From: Gemmatimonadales bacterium
GTDB lineage: Bacteria; Gemmatimonadota; Gemmatimonadetes; Gemmatimonadales; GWC2-71-9
Assembly: GCA_045403135.1 (NCBI GenBank)
Contig: JAXIPC010000009.1
Location: 6,014 to 70,013, forward strand
DNA: 64,000 nucleotides
Reading direction: 5' to 3'
Position numbers and translations under genes: made by a program. The notes below the pieces were generated by a model. It ran no database searches and was not told where the DNA came from. It worked only from the letters and a program-made list of their open reading frames with translations. This document shows, piece by piece, positions 20,586 through 57,517 of the stretch (positions are counted from its first letter, which is position 1; each line of letters starts with the position of its first letter).

Positions 20586-20663
20586 GTGACCTGTGACCTG
20601 TGACCTGTGAGCTGTTCTTCCGCCACAAGTCACTGGTCACTGGTTACGGGTCACTGGTTACTG
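20586..20663. repeat. period-7 micro-tandem repeat arranged as imperfect inverted arms
   Basis: Left arm is GTGACCT x3 plus GTGAGCT (20586..20613). Right arm is GTCACTG/GTTACGG/GTTACTG x5 (20629..20663). The arms are complementary at 6 of 7 positions. The element fills the spacer between gene 20651..21046 and nnr. Confidence 0.85.
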
Positions 20664-21046
20664 CCTCCAGGAACGCCCTGCCACTCATAGCCCTCATCAA
20701 ACGCCTGCTCAAACCGGTAGACGCCGTGAAAATCCTCTACCCGGTCGCCCGGCTGAGTGACCAGCAGCCCGACCTCCACCAGCGCGTACACGATGCAGCC
20801 GAAATCGGCGGTGCCGCGAACGCCCCAGTGCTCCAGGACGGTGCGGGCGAGCAAACCGTATTGCTCCAGCGCGAAATCCCGGCAGGCGAGGGTGAGCTCG
20901 GGGCCGGTCACGTGGCGCCGCTCCGGCAGCTTGCTCTGGAGGTACTCGATGCTGGCCAGCATAAACAGGAAGGCGCGCTCGTCGTAGCGGCCGCCGTGCT
21001 GCCGAATCCGCTCGAGGATCTCACCCGCAAAGCGCAGCTCGTTCAT
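20651..21046 (-). CDS. conserved hypothetical protein (from memory resembles the Minf_1886/TIGR04138-type family)
   Basis: 131 aa with plausible codon usage and an ATGA overlap with the glyA stop. The last codons (SNQ*) are encoded by the period-7 repeat. Confidence 0.55.
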
Positions 21047-22320
21047 CCGGCGGCCGCCATGGCGCGCAGCGGGGCGCGCTCATACAGGGGGAATCCGCCG
21101 GCCAGCTCCTCCACCTCGCCCCGGACCCGATGGACGGTGGCATCGTCCCGGTGGGTGAGCACCTCGTCGATCAGCTCCGCGATGCGCTCCATCTCCGGCT
21201 CGCCCATGCCCCGGGTGGTGAGCGCCGGCGTGCCGAGCCGGATGCCGCTGGTCACGAAGGGCGACTGGGGGTCGTCGGGAATCGTGTTCTTGTTGACGGT
21301 GAGCCCGGAGCGCACCAGCAGCTCCTCGCCCGCTTTGCCGGTGAGGCCCTTGGGGCGCAGGTCCACCAGCATGACGTGGGTGTCGGTGCCCCCCGAGACG
21401 ATGGCAAAGCCGCGGTCCGCGAGCGACTGCGCCAGTCGCTGGGCATTGGCCACCACCTTGCGCGAGTAAGTCTTGAACGAGGGCTCCAGTGCCTCCGCGA
21501 ACGCCACCGCTTTGGCGGCGATGATGTGCATCAGGGGGCCGCCTTGGGTTCCCGGGAAGACCGACTTGTCCACCACCTTGGCCAGGCCGGCGCCACAGAG
21601 GATCAAGCCGCCCCGGGGACCCCGCAACGTCTTGTGGGTGGTGGTCGTGACGATGTGCGCGTGCGGGACCGGCGAGGGGTAGACCCCGCCCGCCACCAAC
21701 CCTGCGAAATGCGCCATGTCCACCAGGAACGATGCACCGACCTCGTCCGCGATGCTTCGGAACGCCGCGAAGTCGATGATTCTCGAATAGGCGCTGCCCC
21801 CCGCGATGATCAGCCTGGGCCGCTGCTCCCGGGCCAGTGCCCGGACCTGCTCGTACTCGATGAGGCCGGTGCCGGGATTCACGCCGTAGTGGCTGGCGCG
21901 CCAGATCACTCCGCTGTGGTTGACCGAGTGACCGTGTGACAGGTGCCCTCCATGGGGCAGCGACATGGCGAGCAGCAGCTCGCCCGGCTTGGCCAGCGCC
22001 ATGAAGGCCGCGAAGTTGGCTTGCGCCCCCGCGTGGGCCTGCACATTCGCGTGCTCGGCGTCGAAGAGCTTTCGGGCCCGGTCGATCGCGATCCGCTCGA
22101 CTTCGTCCACCACCTCGCAGCCGCCGTAGTAGCGCTTGCCCGGGTACCCCTCCGCGTACTTGTTGGTGAGCGGCGTGCCCATCGCATCGATCACCGCGCG
22201 GGAGGCGAAGTTCTCGCTGGCGATCAGCTCCAGCCCGTCACGCTGACGCTCCAGCTCCCGGTCTACCAGACGGGCGATCGCCGGGTCGGCGTCACGCAGC
22301 GGGGCGTTGTGATCAGGCAT
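21043..22320 (-). CDS. glyA: serine hydroxymethyltransferase
   Basis: [14 protein letters not shown] and [14 protein letters not shown] (PLP lysine) motifs. ATG 22320 chosen (MPDHNAPL). Confidence 0.95.
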
Positions 22321-22840: not shown

Positions 22841-23908
22841 CTAGCCCCGGCCGTCAACCCACATCCGGCGCAACCCGCGCACCGAAGCGAGCCGCTCCTC
22901 CGCCAGGCGATCGGCCGCCTCGAACGATGGGATCCCGTCCCGCCGGGCGATCGCGAACACCTTGAGAATGGCGTCGTAGATTTCCCCCGCCTTCCGCTTG
23001 GCCCGCTCTATCGGCCAGCTCTCCAGCTCGCCGTAGACATTGATCAGGCCGCCGGCGTTGATCACGAAGTCGGGAGCGTACAGCATTCCTTTTTTCTCGA
23101 GCTCGACGCCGTGCCGGTCCTCGGCCAGCTGGTTGTTGGCGCCGCCGGCGACAATGGCCACCTTGAGCCGCTTGAGGGTATCGTCGTTGATGGTGGCGCC
23201 GAGCGCGCAGGGCGCGTAGATGTCACCGGGCTGATCGTAAATCGCGTCAGGGGCCACGGCGCGGGCGCCGAACTCGTCCACTGCCCGCTTGACCTTGGCG
23301 GCGTCGATGTCGGTCACCACGATGGCGGCGCCGTCCTGGTGCAGGTGCGAACAGAGATGGTAGGCCACTTTGCCGGCACCCTGCACCAGCACCGTCTTCC
23401 CGGCCAGGTTGTCCTTGCCCCAGCGCTGCATGGCGGCGGCCTTCATGCCCATGTAGACACCGTAGCTGGTGACCGGCGAGGGATCGCCCGAGAGATTCTG
23501 CAGGCCGGCCACATGCGCGGTTTCACTCCGCACGTACTCCATGTCGGCGGGCGAAGTGCCGATGTCCTCGGCCGTGATGTAGCGACCACCGAGCGATTCG
23601 ACGAAACGGCCGTGTGCGCGGAACAGCGGCTCGCGGTCGCTTCGCTTGTTGTCCCCGATGATCACCGACTTGCCGCCACCCAGGTCCAGCCCCGCCACCG
23701 CAGCCTTGTAGGTCATGCCCCGCGCCAGCCGGAGCACATCGGTCAGCGCTTCGTCGGCCGAGGCATAGTGCCAGAAGCGGGTGCCGCCCAGCGCCGGCCC
23801 CAGGGTGGTGTCGTGAATGGCGATGATACCGAGATATCCGCACGACGGCTCATGGCAGAAGACGACCTGCTCGTGGCCCCAGCCTTTCATCTCTCCGAGA
23901 ACGTCCAT
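22841..23908 (-). CDS. leucine dehydrogenase (Glu/Leu/Phe/Val dehydrogenase family)
   Basis: IAIHDTTLGPALGGTRFW, LARGMTYKAAVAGLDLGGGKSVIIGD and the GAGKVA Rossmann motif. Confidence 0.88.
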   Translation of the reverse strand: MDVLGEMKGWGHEQVVFCHEPSCGYLGIIAIHDTTLGPALGGTRFWHYASADEALTDVLRLARGMTYKAAVAGLDLGGGKSVIIGDNKRSDREPLFRAHGRFVESLGGRYITAEDIGTSPADMEYVRSETAHVAGLQNLSGDPSPVTSYGVYMGMKAAAMQRWGKDNLAGKTVLVQGAGKVAYHLCSHLHQDGAAIVVTDIDAAKVKRAVDEFGARAVAPDAIYDQPGDIYAPCALGATINDDTLKRLKVAIVAGGANNQLAEDRHGVELEKKGMLYAPDFVINAGGLINVYGELESWPIERAKRKAGEIYDAILKVFAIARRDGIPSFEAADRLAEERLASVRGLRRMWVDGRG

Positions 23909-23916
23909 GGTCCCTC

Positions 23917-23988
23917 TCAGGGATCAGGAATCAGGAGTCAGGTGTCAGAGTACTACCTGACCCCTGACCCCTGAATCCTGACCCCTAG
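23917..23988. repeat. period-7 micro-tandem repeat arranged as inverted arms
   Basis: Left arm is TCAGGNN x4 plus TCAGAG (23917..23950). Right arm is CCTGANN x4 plus CCTAG (23956..23988). The 5-bp cores are complementary. Fills almost the whole hbd-to-ldh spacer. Confidence 0.85.
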
Positions 23989-24827
23989 TAGGTGTAGAAT
24001 CCCCGCCCGCTCTTCCGTCCCAGGTGTCCTGCCGCCACCATCTTCCGGAGCAGCGGGCAGGGCCGGTACTTCGGATCACCCAGTCCCCGGTGCATCACCT
24101 CGAGAATCGCAAGGCACACGTCGAGTCCGATGAAGTCGGCCAGGGCCAGCGGCCCCATCGGGTGTGCCATTCCGAGCTTCATCACGGTGTCGACCGCCTC
24201 GGGCGTGGCGACGCCTTCCATGACGGCGAACATCGCTTCGTTCAGCATGGGCATCAGAATCCGGTTGGCCACGAATCCGGGGTAGTCGTTCACCTCGACC
24301 GGCGTCTTGCCCAGCGCCTTGGCCACCTCAAGCGTGCGGTGCGTCGTGGCGTCCGACGTCGCGTGGCCGCGGATCACCTCGACCAGCTGCATCACCGGCA
24401 CCGGATTCATGAAGTGCATGCCGATCACCTGCGCAGGCCGGTTGGTCCGGGCGGCGATTTCCGTGATGGAGATCGAGCTGGTATTGCTCGCCAGGATGGC
24501 TTCGGGCCGCGTCACCCGGTCCAGGGTGCGGAAGATCTCGAACTTGAGCTCGGGCCGCTCGGTGGCGGCCTCCACCACGAGCTCGGCGCCCGATGCCGCC
24601 TCGAGCGCGGTCGAGCTCGCGATACGGCCCAGGATGGCTCCCGGCGCGTCCGCGGCAATGGTGCCCTTCTTCACCTGGCGCTCGAGATTGGCCGTGATGG
24701 CGGCGACGCCGTGCCGTAGCGCCTCCTCCGACACGTCGACCAGCGTCACGCTCCAGCCGTGCTGAGCGAACACGTGGGCGATTCCGTTGCCCATCGTGCC
24801 CGCGCCCACTACGCCCACCTGGCTCAC
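23985..24827 (-). CDS. hbd: 3-hydroxybutyryl-CoA dehydrogenase
   Basis: [19 protein letters not shown]-binding motif and the downstream [13 protein letters not shown] motif. GTG 24827 forms a GTGA overlap with the CPBP gene stop. The track ORF is over-extended. Confidence 0.88.
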
Positions 24828-25666
24828 GTGGTGCTCCCCCGAATCGTTCGACGCCCCACCACAATCGCCCCGGCGGCCAGGCACAGCGAAGCGAACAGGC
24901 CGCCTTCGGGACCGAAACCACCGCCGGTGAGCCACGCCGGGCCGCGCATGATGTAATCGAGCCATGGGATCGGCAGCAGCAGCCCGCTCACCGGCGCCGC
25001 CAGACCCGCCAAGGCCAGGTTCCACCCGAAGTGGGCGCCCGTGGCGGTCCAGAGCCCTCCAGGCGTGAAGAACGCCAGGCCGAGGAACACGCCGGCCAGG
25101 GCGATGTTGGCCACCGCGAGCAGCGAGACGCCCTCGTTCAGCAGGTGCGCACCGGCGAAGAGGACGGCGAGCCCCAGGAGCGCGAGCCCGCGCCCGAAGG
25201 CCCTGGAGAGCGCCACCAGCGGCACACCGCGAAAGATCAGCTCCTCAACGAACGCCGCGGGCAGGAGGAGGACACCGGTCACGCCGATCGCGCCGAACCA
25301 GCCCATCACGGTCCCCCCATCTTCCTGCCATTCGGCCTTGCCGAGCGCCACCGCCGCCGCCATTGCCGACGCGGCCAGCACCGTGCCAAGCAGAAACCCG
25401 CGCCCGAATCCCCGGATCCCCTGCCGCACCGGCACCAGCCCGAAATCCGCCGCGGAGAGCTTGAGCGCGCGCCGTCCCACCAGCCAGGTCAAGGCAACGA
25501 AGACCGCGAGCAACACGAGGGTCTGCATCGCTACGAGCGAAAGCGCCCCACCGGTCAGAGCGGGGCGCGTGAGGGACGCGATCAACAGGATCAGCGACAG
25601 CGAAAGGGCGTACCCCCCACCAAGGAATACCAGAGACCAAACGACCGCCTTGAGGCGGACGGTCAA
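24824..25666 (-). CDS. CPBP family (CAAX-type) intramembrane glutamic endopeptidase
   Basis: Multi-TM protein with EELIFRG, FAGAHL and HFGWN motifs. TTG start in a TTGA overlap with the thiolase stop. Confidence 0.8.
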
Positions 25667-26850
25667 AGCGCCTCGACCGCCAGTGCCACGGCATTGCCGC
25701 CGCCCAGGCAGAGCGTCGCAAGGCCGGTCGAGACCTTTCGGTCCCGCATCGCGTACAGCAGCGTGGTGAGCACCCGTGCCCCGCTTGCCCCGATCGGATG
25801 TCCCAGCGCGATCGCGCCGCCATGCACGTTCACCCGGTCCCAGTCCCAGCCGATGGCACGGCCGTCGGCAAGCGCCTGCACCGCGAATGCTTCGTTGGCC
25901 TCGATCAGCCCGTAGTCGGCAATGGTGCCGCCGGTTTTCTTGAGGAGGTTCTTCACCGCTTCGATCGGGGCGAAGAACAGATCCTTGGGGTCGCCCCCAC
26001 CGGTCGCGTAGGCGATGATCCTCGCCATGGGGGCGAGTCCATTGGCCTTTGCGAACGCCAGCGACGCGACCACCAGCGCGCTGGCGCCGTCGTTGAGCCC
26101 CGGCGCATTGCCCGCCGTGACCGTGCCGTCCTTCTGGAACACCGGCTTGAGCTTGGCCAGCGTGGCGACGGTGGTGTCCTTTCGCGGGCCTTCGTCCTGC
26201 GAAATGGTCGCCGGGCCTCCCTTGCCGGGAACCTCGACCGGCACGATCTCCGCGGCAAACCTGCAGGCCTCCATCGCCGCCACCGCCTTGCGGTGGCTGT
26301 GGAACGCGAATTCGTCCTGCTCAGCGCGAGTGATGCCGGCCTTCTCGGCGGTGTATTCCGCGTAGGAGCCCATGTGCACGCTGCCGAAGGAATCCCACAA
26401 TCCGTCATGGATCATTCCGTCCAGCACCGTCTGGTTGCCGGCCTTGATGCCGCCGCGGAGCCCGAAGAGATAATGGGGTGAGGCGCTCATCGCCTCCATT
26501 CCACCCGCCACCACGCACTGCGCGTCACCCGCCTTGACGGACTGTGCCGCGAGCATCACGGCCTTGAGGCCGGAGCCGCAGACCTTGTTGATGGTGACCG
26601 CGGGAATGGTGCCGGACAGCCCAGCGTGGATCATGGCCTGGCGCCCCGATGCCTGACCGGCTCCGCCCTGCAGCACGTGCCCCAAGATCACGTCGTCGAC
26701 GGCGCCGGGTGCGGCACCCGAGCGCCGCAGCGCCTCCCGCACGACGATCGCGCCGAGTTGTGGGGCGGTGAGCGAGGACAGACCGCCCAGGTACTTGCCG
26801 ATGGGAGTCCGGCAGGCGGAGAGGATGACTGGAGTTGTTGCGTCGGACAC
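25663..26850 (-). CDS. acetyl-CoA C-acetyltransferase (thiolase II)
   Basis: ACRTPIGKY, VNKVCGSGLKA (active Cys), NVHGGAIALGHPIGASG and the terminal CLGGG. GTG 26850 gives a typical 395 aa length. The track ORF is over-extended by 200 codons. Confidence 0.92.
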   Translation of the reverse strand: MSDATTPVILSACRTPIGKYLGGLSSLTAPQLGAIVVREALRRSGAAPGAVDDVILGHVLQGGAGQASGRQAMIHAGLSGTIPAVTINKVCGSGLKAVMLAAQSVKAGDAQCVVAGGMEAMSASPHYLFGLRGGIKAGNQTVLDGMIHDGLWDSFGSVHMGSYAEYTAEKAGITRAEQDEFAFHSHRKAVAAMEACRFAAEIVPVEVPGKGGPATISQDEGPRKDTTVATLAKLKPVFQKDGTVTAGNAPGLNDGASALVVASLAFAKANGLAPMARIIAYATGGGDPKDLFFAPIEAVKNLLKKTGGTIADYGLIEANEAFAVQALADGRAIGWDWDRVNVHGGAIALGHPIGASGARVLTTLLYAMRDRKVSTGLATLCLGGGNAVALAVEAL

Positions 26851-26884: not shown

Positions 26885-26962
26885 GACGGGAGGACTGGAA
26901 GACGGGAGGACGGGAGGACGGGAAGATCATCCCGTCTTCCCGTCGTCCCGCCTTCCCGCCCT
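26885..26962. repeat. period-8 micro-tandem repeat arranged as inverted arms
   Basis: Left arm is GACGGGAG/GACTGGAA x5 (26885..26924), loop GATCAT, right arm is CCCGTCTT/CCCGTCGT/CCCGCCTT/CCCGCCCT (26931..26962). Lies in the thrS-to-thiolase spacer. Confidence 0.85.
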
Positions 26963-28883
26963 ACGGCACCAGCGCCCGCGTCGCAATCTCCCGGGTCACC
27001 CGTTCCACGAACCCCCCTACCGGCATCACCTCCTGCTTGTTCCCCGCCCCGCGCACCCGCACGGCCACCGCGTCGTTGTCGACCTCGCGCTGGCCCACGA
27101 TTCCCATATAGGGCACCTTCTGCACCTCGCCCTCGCGAATCCGGTAGTTGAGGGTCTCGTGGCCGGCGCCGAGCTGGGCGCGGATCCCCGCGCCGCGGAG
27201 CCGCCGCGTCACCCGCTCCGCGCCCTCCCGCTGCTCCTCGCTGATCGGAATGATCCGCACCTGCTCCGGCGCCAGCCACACCGGGAAGGCGCCGGCGAAG
27301 TGCTCGATCAGAATCGCCATGAATCGCTCGAACGAGCCGCTCACCGCGCGGTGGATCACCACCGGCCGGTGATCGGTGTTGTCCTCGCCGACGTATTTGA
27401 GGTCGAACCGCTCCGGGGCGGCATAGTCCAGCTGGATGGTGCCGAGCTGCCACTTCCGCCCGATCGAATCGGCGACGTCGAAGTCGATCTTCGGCCCGTA
27501 GAACGCGCCGTCGCCCGGCTTCAACTCATAGGGGAGCCCCGTGGCGTCGAGCGCGGCCTGGAGCCCTGACTCCGCGCGATCCCAGAGGGAGTCGTCGCCC
27601 ACCCGCACCTCCGGCCGGGTGGCAAACTTGAGCGTCGCGCTCAGCCCGAACGTCTTGTAGTAGGCCAGAATGAACTCGACCAGGCGCCGCACTTCCTCCG
27701 CGATCTGCCGCTCCATCAGGAAGACGTGACAGTCGTCCTGCTGAAATTGCCGCACCCGGGTGAGTCCGGAGAGCGCGCCCGACACCTCGTTCCGGTGCAG
27801 TACGTCGTAGGTGATAATCCGGAGCGGCAGCTCGCGGTACGAGTGCTTCTTGGCCAGGTACATCAGGTAGTGCGACGGACAATTCATCGGCTTCAGCGAG
27901 AAGTCGTGCTCCCCGGTTTCCGCGTCGAGCACCAGGAACATGTGCTCCCGGTACTTGCCCCAGTGGCCCGACTGCTCCCACAGCCCCTTGTTATAGAGGA
28001 GCGGAGTGCGCACTTCCTTGTAGTCGTCCCGCTGCAGCTCCCGGAGGTACTCGTTCAGGGCGTTCACCATCGTGGTGCCGCGATCGGTCCAGAACACGGC
28101 CCCGGGCGCGAAGGGGTGAAACATGAAGAGGTCCAGCTCCTTGCCCACGCGGCGATGATCCCGCTTGCGCGATTCCTCGAGCCGGTGCAGGTAGGCGTCA
28201 AGGTCTTCCTTCTTGAACCAGGCGGTGCCGTAGATTCGCTGCAGCATCTGCCGCTTCTCGTCGCCCCGCCAGTACGCCCCGGCGCCGTGCAACAGCTTGA
28301 AATGCTTGAGCCGGCCGGTACCCGGGAGGTGGGGGCCCCGGCACAGATCCACGAACGGCCCGTCGGTGTAGACGCTGATGGTTTCGTCGGAACCTAGCTC
28401 GGCGATGCGCTCCAGTTTGAGCTTGTCGTCGGCAAATCGGCGGTTGGCCTCGTGCCGGTCCACCACCTCGCGAACGAACGGATAGTCCTTGGCCGCAACG
28501 TCGCGCATCACCCCCTCGATCTGCTCCAGATCCTCGGGAGTGAACGGACGGGCCACGTCGAAATCGTAGTAGAACCCGTCTTCGATCGACGGGCCGAAGC
28601 CGATACCGGCCTCGGGAAAGATCTGCCGGACCGCGGTGGCCATCACGTGGGCCGCGGAGTGCCGGAGCAGGTCGAGCGCGGCGGGATCGCGATCGGTCAG
28701 GATCGCAACGGTGGCGTCTTCCTCGATCGGCCGAGCCAGGTCGCGGATCTGATCGTTGACTCGAATCGCCAGCGCGGCGCGCGCCAATCCCGGCCCGATC
28801 TGCGCCGCGAGCTCCCGCCCCGTCGTGCCCGAGGGCACTTCGCGCACACTCCCGTCCGGCAGGGTGAGGCGGATGGTGCTCAC
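26961..28883 (-). CDS. thrS: threonine--tRNA ligase
   Basis: TGS domain N-terminus (IRLTLPDGSVREV), second additional domain HSAAHVM, class II core and anticodon-binding domain; 640 aa. Confidence 0.96.
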   Translation of the reverse strand: MSTIRLTLPDGSVREVPSGTTGRELAAQIGPGLARAALAIRVNDQIRDLARPIEEDATVAILTDRDPAALDLLRHSAAHVMATAVRQIFPEAGIGFGPSIEDGFYYDFDVARPFTPEDLEQIEGVMRDVAAKDYPFVREVVDRHEANRRFADDKLKLERIAELGSDETISVYTDGPFVDLCRGPHLPGTGRLKHFKLLHGAGAYWRGDEKRQMLQRIYGTAWFKKEDLDAYLHRLEESRKRDHRRVGKELDLFMFHPFAPGAVFWTDRGTTMVNALNEYLRELQRDDYKEVRTPLLYNKGLWEQSGHWGKYREHMFLVLDAETGEHDFSLKPMNCPSHYLMYLAKKHSYRELPLRIITYDVLHRNEVSGALSGLTRVRQFQQDDCHVFLMERQIAEEVRRLVEFILAYYKTFGLSATLKFATRPEVRVGDDSLWDRAESGLQAALDATGLPYELKPGDGAFYGPKIDFDVADSIGRKWQLGTIQLDYAAPERFDLKYVGEDNTDHRPVVIHRAVSGSFERFMAILIEHFAGAFPVWLAPEQVRIIPISEEQREGAERVTRRLRGAGIRAQLGAGHETLNYRIREGEVQKVPYMGIVGQREVDNDAVAVRVRGAGNKQEVMPVGGFVERVTREIATRALVP

Positions 28884-36473: not shown

Positions 36474-37079
36474 ATGCGCTTGCGGGTCGTGGTCGTGGTG
36501 TCAGGCAGAGGCAGCAATCTGGCGGCCCTCCTCGGCGCCCTCGGGCCAGGCGCCCCGGCGCAAGTCGTCCTGGTCATGAGCGACCGGGCCCAGGCCGGCG
36601 GTCTCGACGTGGCGCGCCAGGCGGGAATCCCGACCCAGGTCTTGAATGATATCGCCGACGCCGGGGAATGGCGGAGCGCCCTCGAGGGAACCGCCGCCGG
36701 CCTCGTGGTCCTGGCGGGGTACCTCAAGCGGGTCCCGGAGGCGGTAGTGCGCGCCTGGCGCGGCAGAATCATCAACATCCATCCGGCCCTGCTCCCCCGT
36801 CACGGTGGGCCTGGAATGTACGGACGGCGGGTGCACCAGGCCGTTCTGGACAGCGGCGAAGCGGAATCGGGCGCCACGGTCCACCTGGTCACCGAGGAAT
36901 ACGACCAGGGTCCGGTCCTGGGCCAGGCCACGGTTCCGGTTCTGCCCGGTGACACGGCTGAAGAATTGGCGGCGCGGGTCCTCGCCGCGGAGCATCGGTT
37001 GTTGCCGGCTGCGGTGCTGGCGGCGGCGAAGGCCGGCCGGCCGGTGAAGTTCGAGGTGGAAAGCTCCCTAGCTCCCTAG
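36474..37079 (+). CDS. purN: phosphoribosylglycinamide formyltransferase
   Basis: MRLRVVVVVSGRGSNLAAL, NIHPALLP and HLVTEEYDQGPV motifs. ATG 36474 chosen. Confidence 0.92.
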   Translation: MRLRVVVVVSGRGSNLAALLGALGPGAPAQVVLVMSDRAQAGGLDVARQAGIPTQVLNDIADAGEWRSALEGTAAGLVVLAGYLKRVPEAVVRAWRGRIINIHPALLPRHGGPGMYGRRVHQAVLDSGEAESGATVHLVTEEYDQGPVLGQATVPVLPGDTAEELAARVLAAEHRLLPAAVLAAAKAGRPVKFEVESSLAP

Positions 37080-37106
37080 CTCCCTGGCTTCCTGGTTCAC
37101 TGGCCT
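37062..37106. repeat. decaying period-8 direct repeat filling the purN-purH junction
   Basis: AGCTCCCT x3, then GGCTTCCT, GGTTCACT, GGCCT, then the purH ATG. The first units encode the purN C-terminus and its TAG stop. Confidence 0.85.
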
Positions 37107-38633
37107 ATGCGTGCCCTCATCTCGGTAAGCGATAAGCGCGGTATCGTGGACTTCGCGCGCGGGCTGATCGAGCTCGGGTGGGAAGTCGTCTCCACCGGCG
37201 GCACTGCCGCCGCCCTCAAGAAGGCGGGGCTGCCGGTCACGACCGTCGATCAGGTCACCGGCTTTCCCGAGATACTGGACGGACGGGTGAAGACGTTGCA
37301 CCCCGCCATCCACGCGGGGCTGCTGGCCCGGCCCCACATCGAAGGCCATCGCCGCGAGCTGGAAACCCACGGCATCCTGCCCTTCAACCTGGTGGCGGTC
37401 AACCTCTATCCCTTTCAGGCCACCATCGCCGATCCCTCGGCCACGCTCGAAGACGCCATCGAGAACATCGATGTCGGGGGCCCCTCAATGCTCCGCTCCG
37501 CCGCCAAGAACTACGAGAATGTGATCCCGGTGGTGGACCCGACCGACTACCGCTGGGTATTGGACGGGCTGCACAAGGGACCGATAACGGACGATTGCAG
37601 GCGCGCGCTCGCCGCCAAGGTCTACGGCCACACGGCGGAGTACGATACCGCGGTCGCGGGCTACCTGACCGCCCGCGGCGAAGGGCTTCCGCCCCGTATC
37701 AATCTCTCGGTGGAGCGGATGCAGGAGCTCCGCTACGGCGAGAACCCGCAGCAGCGCGCCGCGCTCTATGCCACCGAGGAGCCGCGGGGGATCCGGGACT
37801 TGACGCAGCGCCAGGGCAAGGAACTCTCCTTCAACAATCTGATGGACATTGACGCCGCCACCGCCGCGGTGGGCGCGTGGAACAACCGCCCGGCCTGCGC
37901 GATCATCAAGCACACTACACCGTGCGGCATCGCGGTGGGACGCACCGCGCTCGAGGCCCTCAACAAGGCCCGCTCGACCGATCGGGTGGCGTCGTTCGGC
38001 GGAGTCGTTGCCTGCAACACGGTGGTAGACCGCGAAATGGCTGAGTCGCTCCGCGATCTCTTCGTCGAGGTGATCGCCGCGCCCTCCATTCCGGAAGCCG
38101 CGCTCGCCGTCTTTGCCGAGAAGAAAAACCTGCGCGTAGTGGAGCTCCCGATCGGCACCCCGGCCGGTTCACTCGACTGGAAGAGTGTGCGGGGCGGGTT
38201 CCTGGTGCAGGACCGATTCACCTTCGATCCCTCGGAAGAGGGCTGGAAGGTGGTGACCACGCGGGGTCCATCCCCGGAGGAATGGAACGACCTGCGCTTT
38301 GCCTGGGCGGCCGTGGCCGCCGTCAAATCCAACGCGATCCTGGTGGCGCACAACGAGCAGGCGATCGGCATCGGCGCCGGACAGATGAGCCGGGTGGACG
38401 CGGTTTTCTTTTCGATCCACAAGGCCCGACAGCAACAACACACCACCGAGGGCGCGGCCCTGGCCTCCGATGGGTTCTTTCCGTTCCCCGACGCCGTCGA
38501 GGAGGCGGCCCGCGCCGGGATCCGGGCAATCATCCAGCCCGGCGGCTCGGTTCGGGATCCGGAAGTCATCGCCGCCGCGAACCGATACGGGATCGCAATG
38601 GTGCTGACGGGGAAACGGATGTTCCGGCACTAG
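37107..38633 (+). CDS. purH: bifunctional AICAR formyltransferase / IMP cyclohydrolase
   Basis: MRALISVSDKRGIVDFA, GGTAAAL, KTLHPAIHAGLL and the C-terminal FFPFPD...GGSVRD. Confidence 0.96.
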   Translation: MRALISVSDKRGIVDFARGLIELGWEVVSTGGTAAALKKAGLPVTTVDQVTGFPEILDGRVKTLHPAIHAGLLARPHIEGHRRELETHGILPFNLVAVNLYPFQATIADPSATLEDAIENIDVGGPSMLRSAAKNYENVIPVVDPTDYRWVLDGLHKGPITDDCRRALAAKVYGHTAEYDTAVAGYLTARGEGLPPRINLSVERMQELRYGENPQQRAALYATEEPRGIRDLTQRQGKELSFNNLMDIDAATAAVGAWNNRPACAIIKHTTPCGIAVGRTALEALNKARSTDRVASFGGVVACNTVVDREMAESLRDLFVEVIAAPSIPEAALAVFAEKKNLRVVELPIGTPAGSLDWKSVRGGFLVQDRFTFDPSEEGWKVVTTRGPSPEEWNDLRFAWAAVAAVKSNAILVAHNEQAIGIGAGQMSRVDAVFFSIHKARQQQHTTEGAALASDGFFPFPDAVEEAARAGIRAIIQPGGSVRDPEVIAAANRYGIAMVLTGKRMFRH

Positions 38634-40973: not shown

Positions 40974-41060
40974 GGCGTGGTGGCCGAGTGGTTTAAGGCA
41001 GCGGTCTTGAAAACCGCCAAGGGGGAAACCCCTTCGTGAGTTCGAATCTCACCCACGCCG
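40974..41060 (+). tRNA. tRNA-Ser (anticodon TGA)
   Basis: GGCGTGG TG GCC GAGTGGTTTAA GGC A GCGGT CTTGAAA ACCGC, long variable arm CAAGGGGGAAACCCCTTC, then GTGAG TTCGAAT CTCAC CCACGCC G. Type II tRNA. Confidence 0.9.
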
Positions 41061-42656: not shown

Positions 42657-42753
42657 CGGCGTCCAAGGCCCTCCCAAAGGCCAAGGCTGCGGTACCGGCT
42701 CCGGCGAAGCCCAAGCCGAGCCCGAACTAGGCTGACTTGATCCGCTGGGGCCC

Positions 42754-42769
42754 TGGCACACCTCTAGCC
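42754..42769 (+). promoter_or_regulatory. sigma-54 promoter candidate TGGCAC-N5-TAGC
   Basis: TGGCACACCTCTAGCC has a perfect -24 element and GG-N10-GC spacing. The -12 reads TAGC against consensus TTGC. Lies 42 nt upstream of the start of 42811..43269. Confidence 0.35.
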
Positions 42770-42810
42770 TGTATACAGTCAAGAATCTTGACACTCAGCT
42801 AGGGATACAA

Positions 42811-43269
42811 TTGCCAAATCGGTCGCTCTCGCGCGCTGTCGTTGCTCTCTGCCTGCCGGTTCTCACCTCGGCGTGCGGCTCTCTCGCGCCCAACGAGAAT
42901 GCCCTGCCCCCCGGCGCTATGCTGATGGCCACACCCGCCGTTTATCTCGAGTGGCACGCGAAGACGGAGCAATGCAGTGGCCGAACCGGGAGCTTTTCGA
43001 CCCTCAAATTCTATGTGGTTCCAGGAGTTGAGACCTTCCCCACCCGCGACGGGCTCAAGGTCGGGGAGTGGGTAACTGAGGGCGCCTCGAGCCGAATCGT
43101 AGTTGCCGGGAAATATCAGGACCACGAAATGGTGGTGCGGCACGAGATGCTCCATTCCCTTCTCCGCGCTGACGGACATCCGTCGGAGTACTTCGTCAAC
43201 CGGTGTCAGTTGACATGGGAATCGTGGAATAGCGCTCTCGGGAGTGTGGCACAGGGATCACACGACTGA
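42811..43269 (+). CDS. small lipoprotein with HExxH motif (putative metallopeptidase-like)
   Basis: TTG start. Lipobox LPVLTSAC. HEMLH at VVRHEMLHSLL. Visibly lower GC than its neighbours. Confidence 0.5.
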   Translation: MPNRSLSRAVVALCLPVLTSACGSLAPNENALPPGAMLMATPAVYLEWHAKTEQCSGRTGSFSTLKFYVVPGVETFPTRDGLKVGEWVTEGASSRIVVAGKYQDHEMVVRHEMLHSLLRADGHPSEYFVNRCQLTWESWNSALGSVAQGSHD

Positions 43270-43344
43270 ACATCAGCCAGCAACACTGTTGCGTCAACAC
43301 AACAGACTCATGACCGATGAGCCTGATGCTGGCCTCCTGCGTCG

Positions 43345-44004
43345 TTACCGTCTCCACTCCCGCACCACGCGCGCCCGCTTGACATAGTCGAGCTTCGGAT
43401 ACAGCCGCCCGAGATAGACGTTCCCTTTCACTTCGATCGAATCCTGGGACGGACAAGTGCCCTGGCTCCCGCGCCGGCAGGAGTACTCGGCATACATCGA
43501 GTCGACCAGCTCGATCCCGGAGCGGACCTCGCCGATGGGCGGGAAACCAAAGGTGCTGGTCGTATCCAATCGGAGGTTTGCGCCAGTATTGATGTAGAGC
43601 TGCACCGACCGCGTGTTAGGCCCCGACCGGGCATAGGATACCCGCCCGCGGGTGTTGCTCTGCTTCACCGGCTCGTCCGGCAGACGCCGCTCGCCCCACA
43701 CCGAGGAGAGCGCCGGATCGCCCGCGATCCCCCACTGCACCACGAAACCGGGTACCACCCGGAAGAAGCGAGCCCCGTCGTAGTAGCCATGGGTCACTAG
43801 AAAATGGAGACGGTCGACGCCCAGCGGAGACCAGTCGCGATGGGCCGACACCAGGACGTTTCCGCGATTGGTCTCGAAGGCCACAACGAAGCTGTCCGGA
43901 GCGACCCAGGCCAGGTCCTTGGGGGTCGGTGCGAGGAGGGGTGAATGCCGGCTGCACGCCAGCGAAAGAGCAGCAAGAGAGAGGACCGTTGGCCAAGGGC
44001 GCAT
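43345..44004 (-). CDS. cyclophilin-type peptidyl-prolyl cis-trans isomerase, lipoprotein
   Basis: FETNRGNVLV...YYDGARFFRVVPGFVVQWG cyclophilin core. ATG 44004 gives MRPWPTVLSLAALSLAC (lipobox). Confidence 0.85.
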   Translation of the reverse strand: MRPWPTVLSLAALSLACSRHSPLLAPTPKDLAWVAPDSFVVAFETNRGNVLVSAHRDWSPLGVDRLHFLVTHGYYDGARFFRVVPGFVVQWGIAGDPALSSVWGERRLPDEPVKQSNTRGRVSYARSGPNTRSVQLYINTGANLRLDTTSTFGFPPIGEVRSGIELVDSMYAEYSCRRGSQGTCPSQDSIEVKGNVYLGRLYPKLDYVKRARVVREWRR

Positions 44005-44050: not shown

Positions 44051-44098
44051 TAGCGTCCTAGTGTCCTAGTGTCCTAGTGTCTTAGCGTCTTAGCGTTT
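44051..44098. repeat. six tandem 8-mers TAG(C/T)GTC(C/T)
   Basis: TAGCGTCC TAGTGTCC TAGTGTCC TAGTGTCT TAGCGTCT TAGCGTTT. A TAG every 8 nt puts a stop twice in each plus-strand frame. Confidence 0.9.
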
Positions 44099-44403: not shown

Positions 44404-44493
44404 GGAGTGGTGGCCGAGAGGCTTAAGGCACCGGTTTGCTAAACCGGCATAGGGGGTCAACCTCTATCGAGGGTTCGAATCCCTCCCGCTCCG
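44404..44493 (+). tRNA. tRNA-Ser (anticodon GCT)
   Basis: GGAGTGG TG GCC GAGAGGCTTAA GGC A CCGGT TTGCTAA ACCGG, long variable arm, then GAGGG TTCGAAT CCCTC CCGCTCC G. Confidence 0.9.
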
Positions 44494-49577: not shown

Positions 49578-49600
49578 CGGCCTCCCATTACCATCGGCCC

Positions 49601-53719: not shown

Positions 53720-53720
53720 G

Positions 53721-56222
53721 TCAGACGCTTGCTCCGATCCCATGCCGGGCAAAGAAATCCTCACATTTGGTTCGCACCTCGGCCCACGACCCCATGACCC
53801 GCTCGGCGCGGGGCAACCCGGACAGCAGCAAAGGCCCGTAGCGCTTCACCACCACCCGTCGGTCGAGCAGGATCACCACGCCGGCGTCGGTGCGGGTGCG
53901 GATCAGCCGTCCGAAGCCCTGCTTCAGCTTGAGGGCGGCGTGGGGCAGCAGGTACCCCATGAACCCGTCCTCCCCCTGCTCCGCCAGGCGCTCCAGCCGG
54001 GCGGCCGTCAACGGCTCCGACGGCACCTTGAAAGGTAGCTTGCAGAGCAGCAGGACCCGGAGCGCGCGCCCGGGAACGTCCACACCCTCCCAGAACGAGT
54101 CGGTGCCCAGCAGGATCGCGTTCCCCGCCTCCCGGAAGCGCCGCAGGAGGAGGTCCCGGGTTCGCTCCCCCTGGACGAGAATCGGCCAGCGTGGCGGGAG
54201 TGACGCGCGGAGCTCGGCGGCCGCGCGCCGAAGGGCCGCATGGCTCGTGAACAGCGCAAACATCCCACCGTCGGAGGCCCAGGCCAGCTCCGTGATGGCC
54301 CGAACGACGCACGCATCGTGGGCCGCCTCATCCTCCCGTGGATCGGGGAGATCGTTGGGGATTCCGAACAGGCACTGTTCCGGGTAGTTGAACGGCGAGG
54401 GGAGGATTTCGCGGACGGTCACCGGGGTGGGCGGGAGCGAGAGCCCCACCCGCGACTCCAGAAAATCGAACTCTCCACCTGCCGCCAGCGTGGCGCTGGT
54501 CATCACGACGGTCTTCACCCGGTCGAAGAGCGACTCACGCAGCACCGGCGCGAGGTCCAGTGGCACCGCGGCCAGCGCCAGCTGTTGTCCCTTGGGCCCG
54601 GTTCGTTCCATCCAGCGCACCGTGGGCACCCCGCCAGGACTCGGCCGCAGAGTCCGGTTGAGACCGTCGCTCACCGCTTCGAGCCGCCGCACCACCCCGC
54701 GGAGCTCGCCGAGAATCTGGGTGCGTCGCTCGGTCAGCTCCGCCTGCGACATCCGGTCGGCGATGGTTTCCACGTCGTCCCGCATCCGGCGGAAGGCCCC
54801 GAGCACACCGTCGAGCTCGAAGGTCAATCCTTCGCTCCAGATTGGTGCTTTCGCGAAGTCCGCGTCGAGCCGGTAGGGCGAGCCATTCCCTTCGAGGTGG
54901 GCGTGCATTCGGAGGAACATCGCCTCGGACCCGCGGCGCGCGTCAGCCAGCGCGGGCAGCAGGCGCTGGGTGAGCAGGTCGAGGCTCGCCCGGGAGAGCA
55001 GGTCCATCTGGCTCTTGAGCTCATAGCCCAGCGTGGGCAGCAGACCCTTGCCGTTTCGCTCGAGCCGGCCCAGCAGCCGCCGGACGCCGCGGGTGGACAC
55101 CGAGGCGCCGAGGTGGTTCGCCGCGACGTCTTCCAGGTGGTGCGCCTCGTCCAGGACCAATCTCTGGTAGGGGGGAAGCACCGCCGCTTCGTCCCAGTTT
55201 TCCTGTGCGCCACGGATCGCGAGGTCGGCGGCCAGTAGGTGGTGATTCACCACGACGACGTCCGCTTCCGCCGCCGCCCGTTTGGCCTTGAAGAGAAAAC
55301 AGCGCTCGAAGTGCGGGCACCGGAGCCGGGAGCAGAGGTCCGGCTCGGCCGCCACCTCGTCCCAAACCTCGCTGCTCGGCTGCACCGCAAGGTCGCCGAG
55401 GGTCCCGTCGGCCGTGCGGCTGGCCCACTCCGACAAACCGAGGAGCTCCTGGAGCTTTTCGGGCTCGAGCAACGACTGCTGCCCCGCCACCGCCGTGCCG
55501 AGCCGGGCGAGGCAGAGGTAGTTTCGCCATCCCTTGAGCAGCGCGAACGTGGGCGTGTGCGATTCGTCCGCGAGCGCATCCCTGAGCAGGGGAAGATCCT
55601 TGCCCACCAGCTGTTCCTGCAGGTTGATCGTGTTGGTGGAGATCACGGTGCGTTCGCCGTTGGCCCGGGCCCAGGCCAGCGCCGGCACCAGATAGGCAAA
55701 CGACTTCCCGATCCCGGTGCCCGCCTCGAGCAGCACGACGCCGCCGTCGTTGTACGCGTCGGCAACGTGCGCCGCCATGTCCCGCTGGCCCTGGCGGTCC
55801 TCGAACGCGCCCATCCGCGCGGCGACCGGTCCGCGCTCCCCCAGCGTCTCCACCACGCCCAGCGGATCGATCCGGGTTTCGGCTTTGACGCGCGGTACCT
55901 CGACCACCACGTACAGCTCGGTCGCGTCGTTGTTGACGATCGCGAAGCCGATACCTCCGTCGTGCAGCCGCGCCGCGATGGAGAGGTCCGCCGGGGACGG
56001 CTCCAGCAATCCGCCGGGATGATTGTGGAGGAGCATCTCGCCCCGGTCGGCGATACCGGGGAGGGCCAGCACCTCCTCCGCGGTGCCGCGCGCCACGGGC
56101 CGGACCGCGGTGATCGCACCCGCGGGGTCGACCGTACCGACGAAGCACACCTCGCGCCCGCGCGCGGCGCGAATCTCCTCGGCGATCCTGACCCGCACCG
56201 CCGGCGCGAGCCGGTCGATCAC
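53721..56222 (-). CDS. DinG/XPD-family Fe-S DNA helicase with N-terminal JAB/MPN (JAMM) domain
   Basis: GTG 56222 (VIDRLAP) forms a GTGA overlap with the upstream stop. N-terminal ~130 aa has E...HNHPGGLLEPSPAD, which equals HxHx7Sx2D. Then Walker A EAGTGIGKS, four Cys (NYLC, CSRLRCPHFERC), DEAH (LVLDEAHHL) and C-terminal helicase motifs (GTDSFWEGVD, QGFGRLIR). Confidence 0.8.
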   Translation of the reverse strand: MIDRLAPAVRVRIAEEIRAARGREVCFVGTVDPAGAITAVRPVARGTAEEVLALPGIADRGEMLLHNHPGGLLEPSPADLSIAARLHDGGIGFAIVNNDATELYVVVEVPRVKAETRIDPLGVVETLGERGPVAARMGAFEDRQGQRDMAAHVADAYNDGGVVLLEAGTGIGKSFAYLVPALAWARANGERTVISTNTINLQEQLVGKDLPLLRDALADESHTPTFALLKGWRNYLCLARLGTAVAGQQSLLEPEKLQELLGLSEWASRTADGTLGDLAVQPSSEVWDEVAAEPDLCSRLRCPHFERCFLFKAKRAAAEADVVVVNHHLLAADLAIRGAQENWDEAAVLPPYQRLVLDEAHHLEDVAANHLGASVSTRGVRRLLGRLERNGKGLLPTLGYELKSQMDLLSRASLDLLTQRLLPALADARRGSEAMFLRMHAHLEGNGSPYRLDADFAKAPIWSEGLTFELDGVLGAFRRMRDDVETIADRMSQAELTERRTQILGELRGVVRRLEAVSDGLNRTLRPSPGGVPTVRWMERTGPKGQQLALAAVPLDLAPVLRESLFDRVKTVVMTSATLAAGGEFDFLESRVGLSLPPTPVTVREILPSPFNYPEQCLFGIPNDLPDPREDEAAHDACVVRAITELAWASDGGMFALFTSHAALRRAAAELRASLPPRWPILVQGERTRDLLLRRFREAGNAILLGTDSFWEGVDVPGRALRVLLLCKLPFKVPSEPLTAARLERLAEQGEDGFMGYLLPHAALKLKQGFGRLIRTRTDAGVVILLDRRVVVKRYGPLLLSGLPRAERVMGSWAEVRTKCEDFFARHGIGASV

Positions 56223-57517
56223 GTCTTGAGTTCCTTCTTCTTCGCGGCGGGAAAGAGCACGTTGTTGAGGATCAGCCGGTAACCCGGCGAGTGGGGATGG
56301 GTGCTGAGGTCGGTGGGCGCGTCGCCCACCTGGTGCTGGGGATCTTCGGGGTCGTGGCCGCCCAGGAAGGTCCAGGTGCCCTGGCCCCGCTCGCCGTGGA
56401 TGTACTTGGCCCACGGGGAGCCCGGCTCGTCGGCCAGCACCGTCACCCCGGGCTTCAGGGCGGTCTTGTTGAACGAGGTGGTGAGCCCGTAGAAATCCGG
56501 GATCACTTGCCGGTGGTTTTGCACCAGCATCGTCGGAACCGGGTCGATCTTGGCGCTGAAGTTGAACAGCGTGAACGCGCCCAGCGGCTGGCGCCGATCG
56601 GGAGAGTTGACCTGGTGCCCGTCGATTTCGGAGTAGACCGCCATCGAGGGCGACAGCTCGAGCCGCGCGTTCTGAAACGCGAGCGCGCGCTCCCACTTCA
56701 TTTTGTCGGCGGCCGCCACATCCATCGGCGTGCCGTCGGCAAAGCTCGCGGCGATATCGACGGCGTCGCTCGCGAGCGCGAGGTCCAGCGTCTCCGTGGC
56801 GGTGCACATCGCGAACAGGAACCCGCCCCGCTCCACGAATGCCGAAATGGTCCGCGCCACCGCCTTCTTCTCGGCCGGCACATTGGCAAAGCCGAGCTGA
56901 CGGGCGGTGCGCTGGTTCCGGTCCACCATTTCCTGGAGCCACGGCGCCCCGGCGTAGGTCAGGTAGAACTTGGAGTACTGGCCGGTGAAATCCTCGTGAT
57001 GCAGGTGGAGCCAGTCGTAGGTGCGGAGTCGGTCGCCGATCACCTCGGGATCCCAGACCTTGTCGAAGGCAATGCCGGCGTACTGCAGGGCCATCGTGAC
57101 GGCGTCGTCCCAGGGCGCGGCGTTGGGGGGCGCGTAGACCGCTACCTTAGGCGCCTTTTCGAGCGGCACCGCGTCCATGTTGCCCTGGGCGAGCTCCGCC
57201 CGGATCTCGGCGGCTTGACCGTCGTCCATAATGGTGGCCGACACGCCGGCCACCGCGGCATCGCGCTGCGTGGCCGTGTCGGCCGGCAGGAGGAAGGAGC
57301 CGTTCCGATAGTTGAGGAACCACTCCGCCTTGCCGCCCCGCTCGAGCACCCGGAACGTGACGCCGTAGGCCTTGAGGTGATCGCCTTGCGTCTCGTCCAT
57401 GGGCACAAGCAGCCAGGTGGCGCGGGACCGCCGCGCTCCGGGAATCCCCGGATTCCCGGATCCCCGGATCCCCACGGCGCCGATCGCCGCCGCCCGCACG
57501 AACTCACGACGCTTCAT
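56219..57517 (-). CDS. Tat-signal protein of unknown function (family I recall being mis-annotated asparagine synthetase B; possible class-I GATase-like fold)
   Basis: ATG 57517 forms an ATGA overlap with the TPR gene stop. MKRREFVRAAAIGAVG is a twin-arginine motif. Conserved MDETQGDHLKAYG...WFLNYRNGSFL. An alternative cytoplasmic start exists at ATG 57400. Confidence 0.6.
   Translation of the reverse strand: MKRREFVRAAAIGAVGIRGSGNPGIPGARRSRATWLLVPMDETQGDHLKAYGVTFRVLERGGKAEWFLNYRNGSFLLPADTATQRDAAVAGVSATIMDDGQAAEIRAELAQGNMDAVPLEKAPKVAVYAPPNAAPWDDAVTMALQYAGIAFDKVWDPEVIGDRLRTYDWLHLHHEDFTGQYSKFYLTYAGAPWLQEMVDRNQRTARQLGFANVPAEKKAVARTISAFVERGGFLFAMCTATETLDLALASDAVDIAASFADGTPMDVAAADKMKWERALAFQNARLELSPSMAVYSEIDGHQVNSPDRRQPLGAFTLFNFSAKIDPVPTMLVQNHRQVIPDFYGLTTSFNKTALKPGVTVLADEPGSPWAKYIHGERGQGTWTFLGGHDPEDPQHQVGDAPTDLSTHPHSPGYRLILNNVLFPAAKKKELKT
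57438..57473. repeat. period-8 micro-tandem repeat inside a coding region (signal peptide)
   Basis: CCGGGAAT CCCCGGAT TCCCGGAT CCCCGGAT CCCC. On the minus strand it encodes GIRGSGNPGIPG. Confidence 0.8.

Follow-up and report, generated by a model that had tools for sequence, protein, structure and literature searches.

The elements studied here are arrays of tandem 7- or 8-nt units at six loci in a 64-kb stretch of DNA from a Gemmatimonadales bacterium (contig JAXIPC010000009.1; the whole stretch is called the window below), three of which carry a second array of complementary units. By definition they count as long simple sequence repeats with 5-11-bp units (LSSR5-11). In those parts of the work of Mrazek, Guo and Shah (2007) that two later papers relay, such repeats are longer than expected by chance, lie mostly in non-coding DNA and show an excess of heptamers, the most frequent class in the majority of genomes; polymerase slippage is the proposed cause and units usually differ from locus to locus (PMC4679880, PMC4692102). 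The arrays of the window share the head-to-tail arrangement of 5-11-bp units, the length beyond chance and the variation of unit number between strains. However, they are mostly octamers (four of the six loci), and a complementary arm accompanies the array at half of the loci. In the literature that we searched on such repeats we did not encounter the Gemmatimonadota.

The short tandemly repeated repetitive (STRR) elements of cyanobacteria are a second close counterpart. A heptamer hairpin of this type lies between the co-transcribed genes hupS and hupL, and roles in transcript stability, translational coupling or termination have been proposed for it (PMC2670836). Both kinds of element are short-unit tandem repeats in same-strand spacers with the capacity to form hairpins, but STRR sequences comprise a few genome-wide unit families in heterocystous cyanobacteria, whereas the units in the window (G+C content 67%) differ by locus and belong to another phylum; the genomes closest to the window are Gemmatimonadales assemblies. 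The period is 7 at two window loci and 8 at the other four, while relatives mostly have period 7. Few families at many loci were not seen within the 64 kb of the window and are partly seen in three relatives (L006, L007 and L012). We think it somewhat probable that the arrays are hypervariable short tandem repeats of a known bacterial kind, comparable to STRR sequences.

Three further systems are informative. In Geobacter metallireducens, paired tandem repeats have been described, among them TCTCCGTS[Y] in three copies on opposite strands, (GGACCGG)x4 and (MTYCTGA)x5 (PMC2700814). These resemble the window arrays as intergenic runs of three to five tandem 7-9-mers, often as two opposite-strand sites at variable distance that correspond to our two arms; they differ in forming multi-copy families (16-49 copies) with one consensus each that are read as regulator sites, whereas the window loci have no common consensus. 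In Haemophilus influenzae, the (ATCTTTC)n array in the 5′ untranslated region of hmw is one arm of a long RNA hairpin that is cut by RNase III, and its copy number tunes expression (PMC12721329). The likeness is a heptamer array that serves as a hairpin arm, transcription being presumed for the window. However, the second arm in Haemophilus is non-repetitive and G-rich, the array stands in front of a surface adhesin gene and phase variation was established by experiment; in the window both arms are arrays and the flanking genes are housekeeping rather than surface genes. The GGGAATC repeats of Xanthomonas and GGGGAYT repeats of Nostoc are non-coding, lie near gene ends, vary between related species and sometimes occur as inverted pairs (PMC4692102). 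As in the window, the same gene pairs show extensive variation in length and sequence, and locus 6 (GGGGATCC/GGGAATCC) has nearly the same motif with the potential to form a quadruplex. There, in contrast, one motif dominates genome-wide and the quadruplex is defining, and most window arrays lack it.

Intercistronic spacers of operons also harbor other palindromic or tandem elements. Repetitive extragenic palindromic (REP) sequences of enterobacteria are conserved palindromes of 20-40 nt that occur in hundreds of copies and are mobilized by REP-associated tyrosine transposases (RAYT); their stem-loops protect upstream mRNA. Mycobacterial interspersed repetitive units (MIRU) are 40-100 bp long and overlap the flanking stop and start codons. 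Neither REP sequences and the bacterial interspersed mosaic elements (BIME) built from them nor MIRU consist of 7-8-nt units. An earlier note on this DNA knew of no described element class that matched the arrays; given the long simple sequence repeats, the STRR sequences, the Geobacter paired repeats and the Xanthomonas and Nostoc arrays, this is not supported. The novelty lies in the phylum, in the prevalence of octamers and in a concerted, compensated evolution together with polymorphism within species.

RESULTS

Five of six arrays lie in the scarce non-coding DNA of a compact genome

Tandem Repeats Finder recovered all six arrays reported in the earlier note at their coordinates, with 3.6-6 copies and 82-95% matches. 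When overlaps were merged, seven arrays of period 7 or 8 (at least 3 copies, score at least 40) were counted in the window compared to ~0.04 expected: 100 first-order Markov simulations of the window, a chance test that covered 64 kb of the genome, yielded four such arrays altogether. Arrays of other periods that pass the same cut-offs were absent from the window. Higher-order periods of 14 and 16 nt were also reported by Tandem Repeats Finder inside arrays, including a 16-nt period in the relative L164. Independent Logan contigs of sequencing run SRR25641404 match loci 1 and 2 at 100% identity and homologous arrays are present in other samples, so the arrays are not assembly artefacts. The loci are as follows:

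20579..20663, minus strand: locus 1, two-armed heptamer hairpin, the whole 72-nt spacer from a Minf_1886-family gene to nnr; Tandem Repeats Finder repeats GTGACCT x4.3 (20586-20615) and GTCACTG x5.0 (20629-20663)
23909..23988, minus strand: locus 2, two-armed heptamer hairpin that fills the 76-nt spacer between two dehydrogenase genes; repeats TCAGGAA/TCAGGAG ~x3.7 (23917-23948) and CCTGACC x4.4 (23956-23986)
26885..26962, minus strand: locus 3, two-armed octamer hairpin directly after the stop codon TAG (26961-26963) of the threonyl-tRNA synthetase (ThrRS) gene; repeats GACGGGAG x4.9 (26885-26923) and TCCCGTCT x3.6 (26930-26958)
37062..37106, plus strand: locus 4, single-armed octamer array, AGCTCCCT x3 followed by GGCTTCCT GGTTCACT GGCCT; repeat AGCTCCCT x4-5.2 (37062-37104)
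44051..44098, no strand assigned: locus 5, single-armed octamer array of six units (TAGCGTCC / TAGTGTCC / TAGCGTCT); repeat TAGTGTCC x5.4 (44051-44093)
57438..57473, minus strand: locus 6, in-frame octamer array, sense GGGGATCC GGGGATCC GGGAATCC GGGGATTCCC; repeat ATCCCCGG x3.8 (57444-57473)

A gene map based on codon usage comprises 52 genes in the 64-kb window and assigns 94.4% of it to coding and 5.6% to non-coding DNA. Since in addition ~21 of the 51 gene junctions are 4-nt overlaps of stop and start codons, spacers are rare in the host genome. Five of the six arrays lie in the non-coding 5.6% (binomial p ~3e-6, hand calculation). The placement given by the earlier note, between stop and start codons or upstream of a gene, holds for these five: four fill same-strand spacers (Minf_1886-family gene/nnr, 3-hydroxyacyl-CoA dehydrogenase/Leu/Glu dehydrogenase, ThrRS/thiolase and purN/purH) and one lies 47 nt upstream of a cyclophilin gene. 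Arrays were also correctly described as often absorbing the stop codon: loci 1, 2 and 4 contain it within the array, and at locus 3 it overlaps the stated array end. Among the seven same-strand, tRNA-free spacers of at least 60 nt in the window, three are accounted for by array hairpins.

The six loci have no unit in common, nor do they share cores or ends. Motifs that seemed to recur (GGTCA at loci 1 and 2, GGGAG at loci 3 and 4) are within chance for 7-8-mers when all rotations and both strands are allowed (own estimate), and the content of Shine-Dalgarno or anti-Shine-Dalgarno sequence in the units is inconsistent from locus to locus.

Paired arms of loci 1-3 fold into long hairpins

At locus 1 the sense 5′ arm (20629-20663) reads CAGTAAC CAGTGAC CCGTAAC CAGTGAC CAGTGAC, with the TGA stop of the upstream gene (20651-20653) within the second unit; the loop (20616-20628) and the sense 3′ arm (20586-20615, CACAGGT x3-4) follow, and 7 nt separate the end of this arm from the ATG of nnr. 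Locus 2 has the sense 5′ arm GGGTCAG GATTCAG GGGTCAG GGGTCAG, the loop TAGTAC(T) and the sense 3′ arm CTGACAC CTGACTC CTGATTC CTGATCC. Here the 3-hydroxyacyl-CoA dehydrogenase gene stops with TAG at 23985-23987, and the 3′ arm ends 10 nt before the ATG of the Leu/Glu dehydrogenase gene (23906-23908). In each unit of locus 3, seven nucleotides form the paired core (GACGGGA / TCCCGTC) and one more, which varies, is unpaired; the GTG start of the thiolase gene (26848-26850) is located 34 nt downstream of the 3′ arm. At all three loci the upstream stop codon lies within the base of the hairpin or directly next to it, and the 3′ arms end 7, 10 and 34 nt before the next start.

Folding of the sense strand gave a minimum free energy (MFE) of -37.8 kcal/mol (z -4.0) for locus 1, -58.9 kcal/mol (z -7.1) for locus 2 and -71.1 kcal/mol (z -5.3) for locus 3; none of 200 shuffles was as stable. 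The long hairpins with complementary second arms that the earlier note had proposed for three loci are therefore present at loci 1-3, including one mismatch or bulge per unit, whereas loci 4, 5 and 6 show no significant fold (locus 4 z +0.6). In a model in which the footprint of a terminating ribosome was forced to be unpaired, the downstream initiation region became more accessible at locus 1 (unpaired probability 0.39 before, 0.57 after) and at locus 2 (0.27 before, 0.42 after).

Intrinsic (Rho-independent) terminators were considered and rejected: no T-run follows the array hairpins and a terminator scan flagged no array. A search with Rfam at gathering thresholds gave no match at any array. 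Strong hairpins of an ordinary kind also occur in the window without arrays: the intercistronic spacer 12107-12198 (minus-strand sense) contains a 24-bp hairpin, whose arm includes GCGAA twice, followed by a G8-TAGCTTT-C8 hairpin (MFE -47.4 kcal/mol, z -3.7).

The single-armed loci differ in their relation to genes. The array of locus 4 provides the last 5 codons and the TAG stop (37077-37079) of purN plus the entire 27-nt spacer before the ATG of purH (37107). The genes around locus 5 are divergent, and the array lies in non-coding DNA 47 nt upstream of the ATG of the cyclophilin gene (44002-44004, minus strand) and ~300 nt upstream of a tRNA-Ser gene (44404-44493, plus strand). Locus 6 is coding: its product, VGIRGSGNPGIPG, lies between a signal peptide of twin-arginine-like type (MKRREFV...) and a conserved mature protein (WLLVPMD...). 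In 60 homologues the region that follows the signal peptide is hypervariable, with the mature protein 76-97% identical.

The sense strand of locus 6 carries four G-tracts that constitute a putative G-quadruplex motif, near-identical to the GGGAATC repeat of Xanthomonas. All three genomes compared have a coding octamer array with at least four sense G-tracts here: the window (57438-57473, GGGGATCC), L163 (938-966, GGGGAGCC) and L164 (1419-1468, GGGGATTC/GGGGAACC). Elsewhere, at least four tracts of at least three G with short loops were found in the sense 5′ arm of locus 3 and are missing at loci 1 and 5 and in the orthologous locus-3 arrays (GTCGGTAG).

Arrays of close relatives change by whole units and in both arms

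Close relatives were collected by homologue searches with three proteins and by contig look-ups; their DNA identity to the window ranges from 77 to 95%. Exact-protein look-ups for valyl-tRNA synthetase (ValRS), purH and ThrRS returned no match, those for two short proteins returned the same strain only (100% identity), and a ThrRS scan of metagenome contigs found no close strain (best 77-82% amino-acid identity). The earlier note had suggested a comparison of repeat numbers in orthologous spacers, and variation was indeed found between L165 and L166, between L168 and L170, between the window and L172 and at locus 6.

The ThrRS-thiolase spacer (locus 3) contains a two-armed octamer array in all close relatives compared. 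L165 and L166, two samples of one species that are 99.6% identical and have the same thiolase protein, differ in the 3′ arm by exactly two CTACCGAC units. From four relatives (L165-L171) to the window, the paired core goes from GTCGGTA/TACCGAC to GACGGGA/TCCCGTC: one T-A pair is replaced by A-T and one by G-C, and every unit pair shows both replacements together with their compensation in the opposite arm. This change of the octamer unit at two positions separates species at 84-91% DNA identity. Across the locus-3 arrays, departures from the majority base were counted at 14 of 38 unpaired linker positions as compared to 6 of 266 paired ones (Fisher p 5e-10), a count that comes from one locus family in related genomes and is not fully independent. 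Inversion of the spacer, a hallmark of template switching, was not seen by eye in the loops of L165-L170.

Matched differences were likewise observed at locus 1, where L166 has the unit GAGGTGA/TCTCACC instead of CAGTGAC/GGTCACA. At locus 2 the arrays of L168 and L170 differ by ~1 unit in each arm. This locus is homologous in the window and L168/L170 and missing from L165/L166, with a spacer of 19 nt, and from L167 (9 nt). Because the flank tree, ((window, L165/166), (L167, L168)), splits array-bearing and array-less genomes otherwise, presence of the array does not follow phylogeny. Both the array-less allele of the dehydrogenase spacer (TATGGGTGAGAGGTAA...) and the array-bearing allele (23909-23988 and L168/L170) are found in both clades of the flank tree, which suggests recombination, ancestral polymorphism or repeated precise loss. 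Single-armed arrays vary as well: at locus 4 the 95%-identical L172 has four perfect units, as against three and a degenerate one in the window; at locus 5 it has seven units, with other variants, compared to six. Locus 6 has 3.8 copies in the window, 3.6 in L163 and 6.4 in L164, with variants homogenized within each genome.

Distant relatives carry unrelated units in the same spacers

ValRS-centred loci of other Gemmatimonadales contain, in many assemblies, two-armed arrays of period 6-9 directly after stop codons. These often occupy the same spacers as in the window with unrelated units: in L006 and L007 upstream of nnr, in L011 between the two dehydrogenases (with a first arm that lengthens the upstream protein), in L004, L012 and L010 after ThrRS and in L009 between purN and purH. 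Arrays after ValRS were found in L011 and L020 (period 9). In relatives without an array the spacers measure only 9-60 nt, so the arrays do build the spacers, as the earlier note had stated. Its view that each locus has its own unit is not general, since a relative's genome can have several loci with one unit, and once also with one core. L006 has two loci 2 kb apart with (GTGAACG)n, a GGGGGC..CTCCC core hairpin and (CGTTTAC)n in common, and a third partial copy 18 kb away; two loci of L007, separated by 21.7 kb, carry (GAGGACT)3, a 17-nt loop and (CTCAGTC)3; the unit TGTCGAC occurs at two loci of L012. The unit of the purN-purH array in L009 equals that of window locus 2.

In L012 (17520-17700), heptamer arms (GCTGAAG / TTCAGCC, up to 8 copies) surround a canonical terminator-like core, AAAGCCCCGG-TTCG-CCGGGGCTTTGGTTTG. 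This arrangement suggests that arrays can grow outward from a pre-existing hairpin.

Period 7 is the commonest short period in 2.3 Mb of loci from many phyla. Dense heptamer arrays were noticed in unrelated bacteria (L077, L112, L123 and L135): L077, from rumen assembly RUG12186, has eight in 22 kb with the related units AGCTTAA, AAGCCTA and AAGCTGA, and L112 (34% G+C) has AATTACG arrays at two loci with a second array after each.

Stop codons within the units

According to the earlier note the units at 20586 and 23917 present stop codons in all three frames on both strands. This is the case, and the same applies at 44051. As a property of the class it does not hold: only loci 1, 2 and 5 have all-frame stops, locus 4 has them in two frames, and unit-borne stops are lacking at locus 3 and altogether at the coding locus 6. 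A random 7- or 8-mer unit of intergenic composition has stops in all three frames in 19-22% of cases, and three of six is not a significant enrichment over this expectation. Stops on both strands follow trivially from the complementarity of the two arms. Survivorship is the simpler account of stop-bearing units: an array that overlaps a gene end shifts in length by 7 or 8 nt, and only all-frame stops then still terminate the upstream protein.

Gene context

The ValRS of the window is closest to Gemmatimonadales metagenome-assembled genomes (best ~79-83% amino-acid identity). Within the Gemmatimonadales the order nnr, Minf_1886-family gene, glyA, Leu/Glu dehydrogenase, 3-hydroxyacyl-CoA dehydrogenase, thiolase, ThrRS, ValRS and then purN, purH is kept. 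The genes next to the arrays are:

19016..20578, minus strand: nnr (YjeF_N + Carb_kinase), downstream of locus 1
20651..21046, minus strand: Minf_1886-family protein (TIGR04138), 131 aa, upstream of locus 1; its last codons and stop are array units
22841..23908, minus strand: Glu/Leu/Phe/Val dehydrogenase, downstream of locus 2
23985..24827, minus strand: 3-hydroxyacyl-CoA dehydrogenase, upstream of locus 2
25663..26850, minus strand: acetyl-CoA acetyltransferase (thiolase), downstream of locus 3
26961..28883, minus strand: ThrRS, upstream of locus 3
36474..37079, plus strand: purN (formyltransferase), C-terminal tail and stop codon from the locus-4 array
37107..38633, plus strand: purH, downstream of locus 4
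56219..57517, minus strand: conserved Gemmatimonadales protein of 432 aa that contains locus 6

In five relatives (L005, L006, L007, L011 and L036) the junction of the Minf_1886-family gene with nnr contains an open reading frame (ORF) of ~70 aa for a four-cysteine zinc ribbon. Neither the window (20579-20650) nor L166 has this ORF; in both, the array hairpin alone separates the two genes. No gene was called in the 688 nt between convergent genes at 42657-43344, where the 95%-identical L172 has a gene of 91 aa. Three tRNAs are the sole Rfam matches at gathering thresholds in the whole window:

9342-9415: tRNA Met-CAT
40974-41060: tRNA Ser-TGA
44404-44493, plus strand: tRNA-Ser (GCT)

DISCUSSION

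The arrays are real and non-random, occur only in sequence that is non-coding or tolerant, change in steps of whole units and evolve in concert; the two-armed loci keep their complementarity, and hairpin pairing is maintained. On balance we lean towards the reading that they are quasi-palindromes which slippage has built, whose paired structure is maintained and which are transcribed as intercistronic stem-loops. Replication slippage would create and resize arrays in the few non-coding gaps of a compact genome, often beginning at the stop-codon region of the upstream gene; we infer this mechanism from the patterns, among them the higher-order periods of 14 and 16 nt and arms that differ by whole units on one side only, both of which are consistent with slippage. 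Where a complementary second arm exists, the two arms evolve in concert: a unit change reaches every copy and has its match in the opposite arm, and the unpaired base of each unit drifts. Since plain slippage would homogenize all eight positions equally, something beyond slippage must maintain the pairing. Template switching is known to homogenize the arms of inverted repeats (PMC8604942, PMC7202029, PMC13100816), and the cause of maintenance may be selection on the stem-loop, homogenization of the arms at the DNA level by intrastrand template switching, or both.

The genes on either side of loci 1-4 are on the same strand, and these loci are presumably part of polycistronic mRNAs. In these the three two-armed arrays would form bulged stem-loops of 25-35 bp with the upstream stop codon at the 5′ base and a 3′ base 7-34 nt before the next start. 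By analogy with the STRR hairpins (PMC2670836) and the Haemophilus hmw repeat hairpin (PMC12721329), an intercistronic RNA structure would be the most likely effect, either as a barrier to 3′ exonucleases or as an RNase III substrate. The stem-loop may partly mask the downstream initiation region, which translation of the upstream gene would help to open, and changes in copy number would tune the strength of the structure. The single-armed arrays of loci 4-6 could be the same mutational product without structure. A stronger version, in which the two-armed arrays serve free-living bacteria as tunable devices between the genes of housekeeping operons, we hold to be unlikely. The hairpin base would bring the upstream stop and the downstream start together and the stem would be cut or protected as double-stranded RNA; gain and loss of units by slippage would continuously reset the expression ratio of the neighboring genes, making the arrays contingency loci outside pathogens, and a compensatory change in every unit would be selected.

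Several observations weigh against the stem-loop reading. Transcription through the spacers is an assumption, and structure is missing at three of the six loci. Both compensatory changes of locus 3 are swaps without a wobble intermediate, which is awkward for stepwise selection at the RNA level. The arms of L165 are unequal (4 versus 6 units), and the locus-2 hairpin is dispensable in L165/L166 and L167. Among 14 hairpins the sense strand folds better in seven and the antisense strand in the other seven, with 36 versus 31 G-U pairs; no strand signal at the RNA level was seen in this set, and this symmetry fits a cause at the DNA level as well as an RNA function. The modelled terminating ribosome brought no gain in accessibility for the start region of locus 3, and the contrast between linker and paired bases has the limited independence given above.

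The arrays may instead be a purely neutral mutational by-product, with slippage and hairpin-guided template switching making and homogenizing quasi-palindromes in tolerant non-coding DNA and the RNA hairpins having no selected role. We regard this account as possible, though less probable than selection-maintained or homogenized stem-loops in transcripts. The missing sense/antisense asymmetry, the swaps without wobble intermediates, a presence of arrays that departs from phylogeny in relatives that are viable without them, and the occurrence of single-armed and coding arrays alongside hairpins all agree with it; homogenization of arms without selection has been documented elsewhere (PMC8604942), and a heptamer excess is general in bacteria (our 2.3 Mb of loci; PMC4679880). 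However, pure copying from arm to arm should remove the mismatch of each unit, yet the unpaired position is the most variable one and remains unpaired. Moreover, the locus-3 array is kept at one site across 84% DNA identity, and a stop at the 5′ base of the hairpin with a start just past the 3′ base recurs in several lineages. Dispersal of small mobile palindromic elements with tandem-repeat arms, similar to REP doublets forming hairpins (REPIN) or to miniature inverted-repeat transposable elements (MITE) and inserting after stop codons, would explain why L006 has a unit and core hairpin at two loci plus a partial third copy, why L007 and L012 each repeat a unit at two loci and why window locus 2 shares its unit with the purN-purH array of L009. 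These shared units hint at dispersal or at preferred units specific to a genome, and chance-identical heptamers are not rare among ~25 units (own estimate). We rejected both element types, since the hairpins of loci 1-3 share no unit, loop or flanks, as would be required of REP/BIME elements, and a direct target-site duplication was never found at hairpin flanks, which are inverted complements or unrelated, never direct repeats. Terminal inverted repeats are missing too, the six window loci have no common unit, core or ends, homologous arrays change in place by unit steps, and a scan of the ORFs flanking the six loci (Pfam/NCBIfam) found no transposase next to the arrays. A mobile origin is hence very unlikely.

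Less probable still are two functional proposals. Paired tandem 7-9-mers have been annotated as putative sites of a global regulator in Geobacter metallireducens (PMC2700814), and at locus 6 and in the sense 5′ arm of locus 3 the G-tracts are numerous enough for a quadruplex, as in Xanthomonas (PMC4692102). But units differ by locus and change so fast among close relatives that no single factor could follow, and the G-tracts are lost at the orthologous locus-3 arrays and absent from loci 1 and 5; we see hardly any chance that regulator binding or G-quadruplex formation explains the class. Equally slim is the prospect of the earlier note's idea that the arrays are frame-independent translation barriers which combine all-frame stops with RNA structure. 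The three-frame stops on both strands at loci 1, 2 and 5, the TGA within several units of relatives and the overlap of arrays with gene ends speak for a barrier. Against it stand the loci whose units have no or incomplete stops, among them the translated locus 6, the unremarkable frequency of such units compared to random ones, and a strand symmetry that is a consequence of the two arms. In addition, the natural stop already lies within or before the array and no neighboring gene reads into locus 5.

The arrays form a clean natural series, with changes of copy number within species, replacement of units matched in both arms between species, and loss or gain at one site. With it, selection on an RNA hairpin can be told apart from homogenization of arms at the DNA level. 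Even without function, slippage plus arm homogenization can yield textbook 'covariation', which would matter for structure prediction. The arrays mimic RNA structures supported by covariation, and annotation should take into account that in conserved genes (purN, the Minf_1886-family gene and a dehydrogenase of L011) the C-terminal tail and the stop codon are rewritten by the array. For the biology of the window the result is modest, as the elements are of a known type; it extends the phenomenon of heptamer and octamer repeats to the Gemmatimonadota, a widespread phylum of soil bacteria.

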